The notes below the pieces were generated by a model. The model was given only the letters and a program-made list of their open reading frames with translations. It was not told where the DNA came from and made no database searches. A program made the position numbers and the translations under genes. DNA of 64,000 nt, from assembly GCA_011364975.1 (NCBI GenBank), contig RDOE01000004.1:3316-67315 (forward strand). The letters are read 5' to 3'. The stretch comes from Promethearchaeota archaeon. GTDB taxonomy: Archaea; Asgardarchaeota; Lokiarchaeia; Sigyniarchaeales; SOKP01. This document shows positions 28,769 to 53,953 of this stretch, one piece after another. Numbering within the stretch: position 1 is the stretch's first letter; every line of letters starts with the position of its first letter.

Positions 28769-29368
28769 TTAATTTTTTGCCCCCTTTAATTGTTTTAGAA
28801 ATTCATTTGCCTCCTGCTTGCCTAATTCAAAAGCTTCTAAATTTTTATCAAGAGTAGCAGCAGGCACAAATTTCTTGATAGTTTCAATAGCAGATTCTTC
28901 AGAAAATATACCTGAAAGGATGGTAAAAATCCCAAATAAAATGGAATTTCCAAAAACCATATTCCCAAATTTCTCCACTGCCATTTTTTGAACAGGAATG
29001 CCAATAGCTTTATTAATTCGCTTTACTGATCGAAATTTTTGGATTGTAGAGGTGTCCCATACTAAAAATCCAGAATTTTCATTTATCTTAAGATGATCTG
29101 ATTTAACATCACCTGCAGCCTCCTCTGAAAGTATAATAAGGAAGTCATAGGGTTGCATCGCTTTTGGATAATCTATTAATTTAACTTTTTTATCTAAATC
29201 TATAACTATTTCTGCCCAACATTTTCCTCCACGAGCGGATGAACTATAAGCCTCAGTTTGGGTAGCTGCTAGGTCTTCATATAATGAACTCGCAGTAATT
29301 ATCATTTTTGAAAGCGTTATTACCCCTTGTCCCCCAAATCCTACAATTCTAACTTCATACCTACTCAA
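28769..29368 (-). CDS. 2-oxoacid:ferredoxin oxidoreductase, gamma subunit.
   Basis: 199 aa. N-terminus VRIVGFGGQGVITLSKM is typical of the OFOR gamma domain. Confidence 0.85.
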   Translation of the reverse strand: MSRYEVRIVGFGGQGVITLSKMIITASSLYEDLAATQTEAYSSSARGGKCWAEIVIDLDKKVKLIDYPKAMQPYDFLIILSEEAAGDVKSDHLKINENSGFLVWDTSTIQKFRSVKRINKAIGIPVQKMAVEKFGNMVFGNSILFGIFTILSGIFSEESAIETIKKFVPAATLDKNLEAFELGKQEANEFLKQLKGAKN

Positions 29369-49920: not shown

Positions 49921-51003
49921 ATGCAAACTTTTAAAATAATCCCTCAGTTTCGGGATAATTGCGTAATCCAAGGAAAGAAGGATTGGTTTCAGGATCTTAG
50001 TTTAGGAGATACGATATTTTTAATCGCAAATGAGCCTACTAAAAAATTCTCTATAATTACTAAAATAGATGGCATAGAGCCTGGAGAAGAACCAATTATA
50101 TATGTAGATCAACGCAATTTGGAAAAATTTGCAGAAGGAGATAAGGTATATCTTTTAAAATATAACCCTGCAGAAGCAATTGAAGTTCGAATTCATATCT
50201 CCGATGAATATAGTCTTATTTCAAAAGGAGATTGGACCAAAAATATTAAACCTTCATTAACTAATAGATTGATTGATATAGGTCAAGAGATTTCCTTTTT
50301 AATTCCATGGGATGCGGGAGATCCAATTATCGGAGCAGGGCTAATAACCTCTACTTTGCCGAATCCTCCATTATTCATCGGTGATCGAACAAAAATTATT
50401 TTAGATAAATTTTCTAATGAGATTCTTTCTAAACTTAAACGTCTTACGATACAAAGTAAAGAAGATCGAGTAGAGATACTGGAAAAACAAATAGAGCAAA
50501 ATATCATAGAGTTTATTAAGAAAATAAAACATCAAAATTACCCCTTCAAAGGTCAAAAATATCAATTTAAAGCAACAAATCCAAAACAATTATTTGAGTC
50601 TATTCTCACATTATTTAAAGGTTTGGATATAATAGAAGAACCAGTTGAAAAAAATTTTGATGAGAAAGATCAAGATTATTTTGCATCAGTGGTCTTCTTA
50701 AATAGAGAAATTGTCCCATATTTACAACTGATTGATCTTCAAATTATTGGTCTTAAAAATACTGGCATGCTAATAATATGGGTTACTGGAGAAAAGGAAG
50801 AGATTGTTGAAGAGACATTAAACAATTATAATACAAAAATATCAGCATTAAAACAAGGTTTAGAACAACATATAAACCTAGTAAGCATACAATGCCCAGA
50901 ATGTGGCGGAGCTTTACCAATAAAAGATATTCAGATAAATGGTATTGTTGAATGTGCATACTGTGCTAGAATTTCTAAAATACCTAAAGCATTACGATAT
51001 TAA
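49921..51003 (+). CDS. Cdc48/VAT N-domain-like protein (double-psi barrel plus beta-clam) with a coiled-coil middle and a C-terminal Zn ribbon. No ATPase domain. First gene of the Ub-like operon.
   Basis: 360 aa. LSLGDTIFLIAN...IIYVDQRNLEKFAEGDKVYLLKYNPAEAIEVRI aligns by eye with VAT-N IGDVVEIE...IVRIDSVMRNNCGASIGDKVKVRKV..AKKVTL. IDIGQEISFLIP...GLITSTLPNPPLFIGDRTKIIL matches the second subdomain. C-terminus is CPECGG-x17-CAYC. Confidence 0.55.
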   Translation: MQTFKIIPQFRDNCVIQGKKDWFQDLSLGDTIFLIANEPTKKFSIITKIDGIEPGEEPIIYVDQRNLEKFAEGDKVYLLKYNPAEAIEVRIHISDEYSLISKGDWTKNIKPSLTNRLIDIGQEISFLIPWDAGDPIIGAGLITSTLPNPPLFIGDRTKIILDKFSNEILSKLKRLTIQSKEDRVEILEKQIEQNIIEFIKKIKHQNYPFKGQKYQFKATNPKQLFESILTLFKGLDIIEEPVEKNFDEKDQDYFASVVFLNREIVPYLQLIDLQIIGLKNTGMLIIWVTGEKEEIVEETLNNYNTKISALKQGLEQHINLVSIQCPECGGALPIKDIQINGIVECAYCARISKIPKALRY

Positions 51004-51008
51004 TTAAA

Positions 51009-51842
51009 GTGGAATTAATCATGGATGAAAACCGATATACTAGACTCAAAGCGCTAAAAGATTTTGGATATGAAATTAACTGGGATGATTTAAAAAGAAA
51101 AAGCGTTGCTATTATTGGTATAGGAGGTTTAGGAACTGTAAGTTCAGAAATGGTGACACGGTGTGGAGTGGGAAAATTAGCTTTATTTGACTTTGATACA
51201 GTTGAACCAGTTAATCTTAATAGAAGTATGTTTAAACCGAAGCATATTGGAAAACCAAAGGCAGAGATAGCCGCAAAAATATTAAATGAAATCAATCCTG
51301 ATGTTAAAATCTATTACTTTATTAAGGACATTATGGATATTGATTTTGAATTTACATTTGAAAAAGAACTTTCAAAGATGGACATAATTCTTAACGGACT
51401 TGATAATATTTCTGCTAGAGAATACCTTAATAGTAAATGTGTAAAGTTGAGAATTCCATATATTGATGCTGGAGCTTCTCGCAGCGGATTATCGGGTTAT
51501 ATTCACCCCATTATTCCTTTCAAAACAGCATGTGCTAAATGTATTAAAAGTATAGCAATAAATCTTCCCGAAGAGAGAGGAGAGCCTTGTGTAGCATCTC
51601 TACCAACAACTATGGCGATACTAGCAAGTATTCAAGTGCAAGAAATGTTAAAACTTCTTCTAAAATTTGGTGAAATGATTGATTATGTTATGTATCATAT
51701 GATTACTGGACAATTCCTTCATTACAATACAAAGAAAGATAATAATTGTCCTATCTGTGGTATTAGAAAAAAAGACGGTAAAAGAATAAAGTCAAAGGTT
51801 ACAGATAAAGATATAGAGGATATAATTGAAAAAATAGAATAA
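51009..51842 (+). CDS. E1-like ubiquitin-activating enzyme (ThiF/MoeB/Uba family).
   Basis: 277 aa. Motifs IIGIGGLGTVSSEMVTRCGVGKLALFDFDTVEPVNLNRSMF, CAKC...CPIC zinc pairs, and PCVASLPTT (Cys loop). An alternative ATG start at 51021 has better spacing to an AGTGGA box. Confidence 0.85.
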   Translation: MELIMDENRYTRLKALKDFGYEINWDDLKRKSVAIIGIGGLGTVSSEMVTRCGVGKLALFDFDTVEPVNLNRSMFKPKHIGKPKAEIAAKILNEINPDVKIYYFIKDIMDIDFEFTFEKELSKMDIILNGLDNISAREYLNSKCVKLRIPYIDAGASRSGLSGYIHPIIPFKTACAKCIKSIAINLPEERGEPCVASLPTTMAILASIQVQEMLKLLLKFGEMIDYVMYHMITGQFLHYNTKKDNNCPICGIRKKDGKRIKSKVTDKDIEDIIEKIE

Positions 51843-51974
51843 ATTAGGTGGTTTATCATCAAAAGGATCCAAATACCCCAAATTTTCATTGAGGTCATTA
51901 AGAATCAAGCTATCCTTAGTTACGAAGAGATATATGGATGGCTAATTGGATATTCTGAGTCAAATGTAACTAAA

Positions 51975-53051
51975 GTGTTAGCAATTTATGAATGTACACA
52001 ATTTATAGAACAAACGGTTATCCATGCAATGCCAGATATATTAGAATTTCAAGAAATTAGTTCAGTTCTTCCTCAAGGTATTGGACCAATAGGTATTTAT
52101 CATTCTCATCCAAGCCTAAGTGATATTTTTCATTCTCATACTGATGATTCAACTCTGATAAGCTTAACAAATCAATTTCAAGATTGCATCTCAATAATTA
52201 CTAATGGACAGAACATTAAATTCTACCAAATGGGGAAAAATTATAAAACTAAAGAAATAGAAGTTGAGTATATTGAACCGGAAGTACCAAAATTTATGTT
52301 AGTTTCAATTAATGAAAAATTTGAAATTTTCATTGATCCCGAATTTTTAACTCAAGAAAAAAGTTTAAGTAAATTAAATATACAAATTCAAAATTTAATC
52401 ATAAATTATTTTCAAAATAACTGGAACGAATTAGAATTTACACATAATAACTCAATAATAGGAAATAAAGATAAATTGCATAAATATTTAGTAGAGAAGT
52501 TAAATACGGAACCATTACGGCTTAAAATTCCATCTAATTTAAAGCAGCGTCATAGAAATTTATTAAAAGTTATCCAGAAAGGCAATAAGGATGATACTGT
52601 AAGTTACGAAGCTTTTGAATTTATTATTAATACAAAATTTCCACTCTATAATATTCGAAAGTATGATAATTTTGATACACTTAGTCAGAAAGTAAAGGAT
52701 GAATTTTTAGGAAATAATCTCATTCAAAAATTGCATAATTTAATCATTGATAAAGAAAACCTTAGAATTATTATACCTAATGACTATTATTTGAAGTTTT
52801 TTGGATTCTATATAAGAACTTTGAACTTCAATAAAAAAAACTTAAATGAAATCTTAATTAAGAATGAACCGTATAAGTTTGAATTGAAAATAATTCGCTT
52901 TTTGAAATCCTTCATAAATTTGGAAGTTTCAATTAAGTTTAAGAACTATTTATATGAGCTTTTGAATAATTTGGAAGATTTTGCTGAACATTTTACATGG
53001 AAAGAGAAATTAAGTGAAGATTTAAAACAACTCAAAATTAACTTAAAGTAG
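51975..53051 (+). CDS. JAMM/MPN+ metalloprotease (Rpn11-like deubiquitinase candidate) with a roughly 240-aa helical C-terminal extension. The true start is probably upstream, near 51855.
   Basis: JAMM motif GIYHSHPSLSDIFHSHTDDS. The matching catalytic Glu motif (EEIYGWLIGY) is encoded at 51924..51953, upstream of GTG 51975, in the same open frame. Confidence 0.75.
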   Translation: MLAIYECTQFIEQTVIHAMPDILEFQEISSVLPQGIGPIGIYHSHPSLSDIFHSHTDDSTLISLTNQFQDCISIITNGQNIKFYQMGKNYKTKEIEVEYIEPEVPKFMLVSINEKFEIFIDPEFLTQEKSLSKLNIQIQNLIINYFQNNWNELEFTHNNSIIGNKDKLHKYLVEKLNTEPLRLKIPSNLKQRHRNLLKVIQKGNKDDTVSYEAFEFIINTKFPLYNIRKYDNFDTLSQKVKDEFLGNNLIQKLHNLIIDKENLRIIIPNDYYLKFFGFYIRTLNFNKKNLNEILIKNEPYKFELKIIRFLKSFINLEVSIKFKNYLYELLNNLEDFAEHFTWKEKLSEDLKQLKINLK

Positions 53052-53147: not shown

Positions 53148-53414
53148 ATGGCATCTGAATTAAATACCATCTATTTTGTTAATAAATTTGGAACAGAAAA
53201 AAAGCAAGTGCCATTCCCTGTTTCAGCAAACATTAAATTAATGGATGTTGTTCCAGAAATCTCAAAAAAGTTTGGAATCTCTTCTCAAAATGTTTGTATT
53301 GCAAATATGGGAGGACAAGTACTAACTAATACAGACCTATTAAGTCCAATTAAAGAAATTGTTGAAAAGTTCGGAAATACTTTTGATATTATTGATAGAG
53401 GGATTGTTGGGTGA
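53148..53414 (+). CDS. Ubiquitin-like beta-grasp modifier.
   Basis: 88 aa, small and operon-embedded between JAMM and E2. C-terminus is ...DIIDRGIVG directly before the stop. The TGA stop overlaps the GTG start of the E2-like gene (GTGA). Confidence 0.7.
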   Translation: MASELNTIYFVNKFGTEKKQVPFPVSANIKLMDVVPEISKKFGISSQNVCIANMGGQVLTNTDLLSPIKEIVEKFGNTFDIIDRGIVG

Positions 53415-53953
53415 CCAGTTCAGATAAAAGATGGCAAAGGTCTATAGTAGATGAATTAATTCAAGAATTTTCTAACAATTGGGTTTCCATAGGACCTAAA
53501 AATCCTGCATGGAAAGATCGGGTAAAGTTAGAGATCGAAAAAATTATGCAGTATATTAATTTCTTAAAGAATACTAAAAATAGACCTTGGTTTAAGTTAT
53601 TTCCAGAACGAAATCCTCGTTATAATTATTTAATTTGGGCAGGAAATTTGGTTGTGCCTGAACGATCTGAAATAAATTTCGATATCAAAGTATTACTTAC
53701 TTCTGAATATCCAAAAGTATGTCCAAGATGTTTCGCAGAAGAATCTATTTTAAATTACTGTGGTAAAATATTTTTGAAGAATATATGGGAACAGGATAGT
53801 AAAAAGTACGTAATGATATGTCATGAACATATGTCTGATACTAATGCATGGAATGAGCGTCTTGGTATTGTTCATTTCTTTATACGCCAGGTATGGGTAT
53901 GGTGGGCTGCTCAACAAAATGTAATTATCCAAGAATATGATAAAAAACATTAA
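53411..53953 (+). CDS. E2-like ubiquitin-conjugating enzyme (UBC fold).
   Basis: 180 aa. FDIKVLLTSEYPKVCPRCFAEE resembles the UBC YP-x-x-PP-x-x-F segment. NYCGKIFLKNIW resembles the catalytic G-x-ICL-x-x-L-x-x-x-W segment. Confidence 0.65.
   Translation: MTSSDKRWQRSIVDELIQEFSNNWVSIGPKNPAWKDRVKLEIEKIMQYINFLKNTKNRPWFKLFPERNPRYNYLIWAGNLVVPERSEINFDIKVLLTSEYPKVCPRCFAEESILNYCGKIFLKNIWEQDSKKYVMICHEHMSDTNAWNERLGIVHFFIRQVWVWWAAQQNVIIQEYDKKH

Follow-up and report, generated by a model that had tools for sequence, protein, structure and literature searches.

Translation from AUU, AUA or AUC is established for a few bacterial genes, among them infC, which encodes IF3, and pcnB, and NCBI translation table 11 lists ATT, ATC and ATA. 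The AUU codon of infC underlies autoregulation by the very factor that rejects such codons (PMC4705826, PMC2830850), and four starts of this type in Deinococcus deserti were considered unusual (PMC2830850). In the literature on Asgard archaea we found one remark and no genome-wide description of such starts: the AtubA gene of a Kariarchaeaceae metagenome-assembled genome (MAG) is given a 'rare ATT start codon' in a Methods section (Sci Adv 2026, PMC13394414). Here we analyze a stretch of 64,000 nucleotides (nt) from a Lokiarchaeal genome, hereafter the window (Promethearchaeota archaeon, assembly GCA_011364975.1, contig RDOE01000004.1, positions 3,316 to 67,315 of the forward strand), in which a gene for a JAMM/MPN+ deubiquitinase-like protein follows an E1 gene and lacks any ATG, GTG or TTG ahead of the codon for its catalytic Glu. 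Sequence comparison makes it very probable that this gene is a separate cistron whose translation starts at the AUC at 51858, behind a Shine-Dalgarno (SD) box. For the single gene this is a known kind of start. The novelty is that ATT, ATA and ATC starts (together, AUH starts) are customary throughout this genome, and probably its family, in an organism whose initiation apparatus is of eukaryote type, which goes beyond what the original prediction had seen in one gene.

The E1-like adenylating enzyme, of the ThiF family, is encoded at 51009..51842 (Pfam ThiF, E 9e-53; this and all other features of the locus lie on the plus strand) and ends in a TAA at 51840-51842. The JAMM frame is open directly after this stop, reading ATT AGG TGG TTT ATC ATC AAA from 51843, and its first ATG, GTG or TTG is, as the original prediction had stated, the GTG at 51975..51977 (codon 45 counted from 51843). 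From the E1 stop to this GTG, the sequence encodes ..IKRIQIPQIFIEVIKNQAILSYEEIYGWLIGYSESNVTK and holds the GAG for the invariant catalytic Glu at 51927..51929. The box AGGTGG lies at 51846..51851, with its GGTG core at 51847-51850, and is followed by TTT ATC ATC; the second ATC (51858..51860), which we propose as the start codon, lies 7 nt past the core. Counted from there, the full Rpn11-like JAMM/MPN+ gene has 397 codons plus stop (51858..53051), the GAG becomes E24 within the motif E-I-Y-G-W-L-I-G, and GTG 51975 becomes an internal Val, V40. The MPN domain of the protein takes up about residues 1-140, and the C-terminal remainder is helical. The G+C content of the genome is 31%, and G is rare at third positions.

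We compared the junction with orthologous loci. A pattern search of genome contigs with the N-terminal domain of JAMM gave 67 hits, of which none was confirmed. Whole-genome searches gave five further JAMM copies, spread over four more genomes of the genus, so that the window makes six, and look-up of truncated public proteins added another six, for a total of 12 loci, related to one another, from at least 10 assemblies. When anchored on the box, all 12 show GGTG, 7 variable nt and a start-like codon in the JAMM frame. This codon is ATA in seven loci, ATT in two, ATC in two and GTA in one, and the arrangement of GGTG, 7 nt and AUH in 11 of the 12 strongly supports initiation at ATC 51858, one of the routes that had been suggested for this gene. 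An in-frame stop lies 2-7 codons upstream of the start-like codon in the six loci of the genus; in the remaining six, the frame opens at a similarly short distance. Only CAA CCT or GAC TCC stands between the stop and the ATA in two loci. None of these codons is a near-cognate start, and the two loci therefore have no nearby alternative start. One ortholog carries a one-residue deletion between the start-like codon and a conserved Ile-Pro, indicating that the start codon keeps its distance from the SD box and not from the aligned protein residues. ATC 51858 coincides in the alignment with the ATG of L004, a distant ortholog, and with the Met of P0025, and the remaining ATG-start orthologs begin 2-5 residues before the aligned AUH. 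No canonical start precedes the indispensable conserved residues in 10 of the 12 orthologs.

The box itself matches the habits of this genome, in which no 4-mer is more enriched ahead of confident ATG starts than GGTG. Among 702 such starts, GGTG is found upstream of 6.6%, AGGT of 13.5%, GTGA of 15.7% and GAGG of 10.8%, all clearly enriched. The spacing between SD box and confident ATG starts is 5-10 nt, most commonly 7, and the peak for canonical starts taken together is at 6-7. In this Lokiarchaeon SD boxes serve a minority of genes, but a non-negligible one, which may be underestimated from annotated starts.

Since a single TAA separates E1 and JAMM in a shared frame, it had been suggested that this stop is read through, giving an E1-JAMM fusion in which JAMM has no start of its own. 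The two frames are indeed identical in the window, but their identity is not conserved. Across the five E1-linked loci of the genus, the E1 stop lies in frames 0, 2, 2, 0 and 2 relative to JAMM, that is, in frame 2 in three of the five, and in the fourth the frame is shared but two stops (TGA, TAA) intervene. The sixth JAMM copy has no E1, and a different gene lies upstream of it across a 58-nt gap. In loci L002 and L022, the open frames of E1 and JAMM do not overlap, which excludes a frameshift fusion too. The SD box and the AUH codon are kept whatever the E1 frame. The comparison of orthologous junctions that the original prediction called for thus reveals no conserved fusion and, in its place, a retained SD box and start-like codon. 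Because the E1 and JAMM frames vary, neither readthrough nor a frameshift fusion is the conserved mechanism, and we consider readthrough of the E1 stop extremely improbable. The copy without E1 belongs to a genome with two JAMM copies (L023 / L096; G017:C77; GCA_019057795.1). There the second copy is preceded by a 488-residue gene that is not E1 and followed by a 348-residue gene and then by genes for a ubiquitin-like protein and an E2; it is a rearranged second ubiquitin-type operon.

We then asked what the segment upstream of GTG 51975 contributes to the protein, using an alignment of six close and three distant JAMM orthologs. Ahead of V40, residues I14, K15, A18, E24, Y26, G27, W28, L29 and G31 are invariant in 9/9 sequences. 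E24, H82, H84, S93 and D96 are likewise invariant in the nine and form the JAMM signature E-x(n)-H-x-H-x(7-10)-S-x2-D, which is complete only if translation starts upstream of GTG 51975. The zinc-site motif H82-S-H84 ... S93 ... D96 of the active site is encoded at 52101..52145, with H82, S83, H84, P85, S93 and D96 as invariant columns. The best match of the ortholog profile in the PDB is the Rpn11 homolog of Caldiarchaeum subterraneum (6FJU/6FJV, E 5.6e-12), whose E-V-A-G-L-L-V-G aligns with E-I-Y-G-W-L-I-G so that E24 stands opposite its Glu. In an AlphaFold2 model (predicted local distance difference test score 77.5), residues 2-5 form strand 1, residues 8-20 form helix 1 and residues 25-34 form strand 2, all before V40. 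The top Foldseek matches are 6FNO/6FJU/6FNN (E about 2e-9, template-modelling score 0.67/0.76), followed by BRCC36, Rpn11, CSN5 and PfJAMM1. Alignment, model and structure search agree in assigning the catalytic Glu and the start of the MPN fold to the upstream segment, as the original prediction had read from this one sequence.

These data bear directly on the annotated gene model, in which translation starts at GTG 51975 and gives an MPN protein without the catalytic Glu, an inactive scaffold. Gene finders choose this codon, the first canonical start, and the corresponding public protein (P0002) has 358 residues, is 97% identical, begins MLAIYEC and has no Pfam match. Yet the 39 codons upstream of the GTG are conserved, with invariant residues and mostly synonymous variants, and the first canonical codon is scattered in the orthologs, from codon 14 to codon 73 of the open frame, with no SD box. 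According to the model, the protein started at GTG 51975 would have neither the Glu nor strand 1, helix 1 and strand 2, all three of which belong to the core of the MPN fold. It scores 21 bits against Pfam Prok-JAB (PF14464), under the cut-off of 25, versus 31.4 bits with the upstream segment. We therefore regard an inactive scaffold started at GTG 51975 as highly unlikely. Among the public homologs of the JAMM protein, about 45 of the 120 listed have 316-376 residues and no Pfam match. We looked up eight of these short homologs, two of which were copies already included, and found by inspection of the DNA that 7/7 distinct loci, counting the gene in the window, are truncated alike.

The lack of a canonical start could also stem from an error in sequencing or assembly, from a recent mutation, or from the gene having lately become a pseudogene. 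Beyond the absence of a canonical start itself, nothing speaks for this. Independently assembled contigs from four metagenome studies span 51840-51977, and the TAA, the SD box and ATC ATC are unchanged in all of them. These contigs are all from DNA; a look-up of RNA runs listed none with the locus. Six variants fall between 51881 and 51971, of which five are synonymous in the JAMM frame and one changes Leu to Phe; none creates an ATG, GTG or TTG. The unchanged letters in four studies and the mostly synonymous variants indicate that the sequence is real and that the stretch is under coding constraint. With the 397-codon frame intact and the same arrangement common to the 12 loci, we give virtually no credence to an error or a recent pseudogene.

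Harder to set aside is initiation within the same short region from another codon or by another route, namely at ATC 51855, at ATT 51843, or by reinitiation after the E1 TAA at any near codon. The window has three AUH codons within 18 nt of the E1 stop, and JAMM begins 6-19 nt after E1 in five of the six loci of the genus. However, a spacing of 7 nt from GGTG is common to all 12 loci, whereas the upstream stop lies anywhere from 6 to 58 nt away. ATC 51855 lies at offset 4 from the core, a spacing seldom used by canonical starts in this genome, and ATC 51858 is preferred over it for this reason. Proximity to an upstream gene is also no hallmark of such codons genome-wide: a same-strand open reading frame (ORF) ends within 30 nt upstream of 24/89 candidates with SD box and AUH codon, versus 81/208 canonical ones. 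Translational coupling as a requirement for AUH starts is ruled out by these counts. A different codon or reinitiation in this region is therefore unlikely.

For initiation at AUC 51858, we propose that the 3' end of 16S rRNA would pair with AGGUGG (51846-51851) and that this pairing would set the codon 7 nt past the GGUG core into the P site. There the initiator Met-tRNA, with its CAU anticodon, would be accepted at AUC despite the mismatch at the third position, giving a 397-residue product with a complete MPN fold and the catalytic Glu. As far as sequence comparison can tell, this account has behind it the open frame, the SD box and its spacing, their conservation, the need for the N-terminal segment and the genome-wide excess of AUH codons behind SD boxes described below. 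By extension, Met-tRNAi is presumably the initiator at AUC 51858 and Met the first residue of JAMM, the weak AUC codon may hold JAMM output low relative to E1, and a low or self-limited stringency of aIF1 in this family would permit AUH starts.

Several points weigh against a start at AUC 51858. To our knowledge, AUH codons are weak initiators in all systems tested to date. Sulfolobus aIF1 rejects AUU in vitro (PMC4705826, PMC6237735). ATC 51855, at offset 4, and ATT 51843 are other candidate start codons nearby. We sought the 3' tail of 16S rRNA in the MAG and did not find it, and the anti-SD sequence is assumed to be standard archaeal. Two orthologs have a non-conserved in-frame TTG before the Glu, at codon 14 or 20 of their open frames, that is a possible alternative start. 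Finally, locus L095 (GCA_048937405.1, 1331-1344) has GTA at the position 7 nt past GGTG, with two mismatches to AUG. In that locus the next ATA lies five codons past the GTA, and a double-mismatch start, a shifted start and an error are all possible.

We searched the whole 3.74 Mb assembly for codons placed 7 nt past GGTG that open an ORF 120 or more codons long and have an in-frame stop at most 10 codons upstream. AUH codons occur here far more often than control codons, with ATT 14, ATA 12 and ATC 5 against AAA 3, TTT 3 and AAT 1, the canonical counts being ATG 18, TTG 10 and GTG 3; the TGA inside GGTGA inflates such raw counts at offsets 4, 7 and 10. The AUH excess persists after GGTGA is split from GGTG[CGT], measured with a background taken deep in ORFs, where the ratio of AUH to other codons is about 1:10. 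When the SD box is defined more generally, as 5 nt or more of GGAGGTGATC at a spacing of 5-9, one is present before 208/2266 canonical candidates (9.2%), 89/2662 AUH candidates (3.3%) and 193/13931 control-codon candidates (1.4%), so that SD-carrying AUH sites are about 50 above expectation.

Twenty strict candidates (loci L024-L043) combine GGTG, 6-7 nt and ATT, ATA or ATC with no canonical start for at least 16 codons. In 14 of the 20, a Pfam domain begins (model position 1-9) 2-38 residues from the AUH and would be truncated by translation from the first canonical start. These domains are ABC_tran (twice), Ras, Gtr1_RagA (twice), FAD_oxidored, metallo-beta-lactamase, Roadblock, CinA, TatD, CbiA/MinD, folE2, cytidylyltransferase and GFO_IDH_MocA. 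The 20 include Asgard signature proteins, namely Ras-like and RagA-like small GTPases, Roadblock/LC7 and a gelsolin-repeat protein, as well as the housekeeping enzymes folE2, TatD, CinA and a PPAT-like protein. Elsewhere in the window, an ORF of 617 codons opens directly after a stop with an ATT at 28802 (minus strand), 5 nt behind a GGAGG box; an ATG follows 12 codons past the ATT and leaves the start ambiguous.

To see how far the habit extends beyond this genome, we followed folE2, which starts with ATT here. In about 40 loci from six genera of the same family (f1), most folE2 genes keep GGTG or AGTG, 6-7 nt and ATT, ATC or ATA; two genomes of the family have changed to ATG, and a few more carry a GTG in frame. 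Where the start can be read in sister-family loci, it is ATG, or GTG in one of them. We also sampled 800 kb per group for codons 6 or 7 nt past GGTG, with the sister-family sample (f2) drawn from two genomes. This genome gave 43 canonical, 36 AUH and 33 other codons, the family outside the genus 11, 4 and 13, and the sister family 14, 2 and 10. A family-level shift toward AUH starts is likely from these comparisons; we grade it as likely and not as established because the counts are small. In another genus of the family, a uL15-like gene, identified by eye from its N-terminal sequence, opens with GGTGA, 6 nt and ATT (L138-L153, G086:C7).

The gene for the initiation factor aIF1 (SUI1) shows the same feature. 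In this genome (C38:7743-7958, minus strand; L201), it has no ATG, GTG or TTG before codon 109 of 113, and in 22 genomes of the family, which represent four genera, a conserved ATT or ATC precedes the CPxC zinc knuckle by six codons (relatives L178-L207). At the same position, sister-family genomes have ATG, TTG or ATA, and one genus of the family has GTG. The sole initiator-type tRNA found (C170) has a CAU anticodon, an A1:U72 pair, an anticodon stem with three G:C pairs (GGG/CCC) and introns. A pattern search for initiator-like anticodon arms with non-CAU anticodons returned only the CAU gene on C170, in a tRNA census that is incomplete (15 genes by ARAGORN, 21 by Rfam RF00005). Because many tRNA genes are intron-bearing or unassembled, there may be a second, AUH-reading initiator tRNA.

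These observations can be drawn together in a broader proposal, for and against which we find the balance even. Across a whole Lokiarchaeia family, start-codon stringency would be relaxed, with roughly a quarter to a third of SD-led genes, including ubiquitin-system, small-GTPase, roadblock and housekeeping genes, started by AUU, AUA or AUC. The AUU-started aIF1 would form an infC-like feedback loop that sets this stringency, and in published Asgard proteomes such genes would be systematically shortened or missed.

The JAMM gene lies within an operon. The first gene (49921..51003) is an ORF for a 360-residue protein with a C-terminal Zn ribbon, for which the match to Zn_ribbon_LysW is weak and under the cut-off; this gene precedes E1 in L095 and L097 of the orthologous loci as well. 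Downstream of JAMM are an ORF for an 88-residue ubiquitin-like protein (53148..53414), present in most orthologous loci, and a UFC1-like E2 (53411..53953; Pfam UFC1, 26.3 bits with a cut-off of 25). It is this operon context of E1, ubiquitin-like protein and E2 that points to the predicted activity, cleavage of isopeptide bonds to a ubiquitin-like modifier.

If the AUC start holds, the annotated 358-residue form would be a dead enzyme, and the 397-residue product is predicted to be the complete Rpn11-like protease of an Asgard ubiquitin-type system. Confining gene finding to ATG, GTG and TTG deprives dozens more genes in this genome of P-loops, Rossmann motifs or entire domains, and such systematic N-terminal truncation skews structure prediction, domain counts and phylogenies. 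This bias matters because Asgard genomes are mined for eukaryotic signature proteins, and a genome- and family-wide AUH habit has practical consequences for their annotation. Routine SD-assisted AUH initiation on eukaryote-type machinery, with aIF1 itself AUU-started, would also provide a natural system for studying the evolution of start-codon stringency.

As a protein, the JAMM product is closest to the Rpn11 homolog of Caldiarchaeum subterraneum (6FJU, 6FJV, 6FNN, 6FNO), with which it shares the E...HxH...S..D site and an operon containing E1, E2 and a ubiquitin-like protein. It differs in having about 250 extra C-terminal residues, an identity of about 21% and a UFC1-like E2 as neighbor. 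As a start site, the locus resembles AtubA, whose deposited protein lacks the first beta strand until an upstream ATT at a plausible ribosome-binding-site distance restores the fold. The AtubA report viewed a single gene as rare, with no comparative or genome-wide analysis, whereas both are made here. In animal mitochondria (NCBI tables 2 and 5), AUA, AUU and AUC are routine starts in an AT-rich genome with a single tRNA-Met. Their mRNAs are leaderless, C34 of the tRNA is modified to 5-formylcytidine (f5C), and AUA means Met in elongation too. Unlike these, the Lokiarchaeal AUH starts depend on an SD box, and nothing hints at an altered code. The likeness to infC and pcnB is that a near-cognate AUH stands behind an SD box, is presumably read by the initiator Met-tRNA, is kept in orthologs though its third base drifts, and is missed by gene finders. 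The differences are an archaeal host with eukaryote-type aIF1, aIF1A and aIF2, and dozens of genes in one genome instead of one to four. The ATT or ATC start of aIF1 formally resembles both the AUU autoregulation of infC and the poor-context autoregulation of eIF1, and the aIF1 arrangement may be what sets a low stringency in this family.

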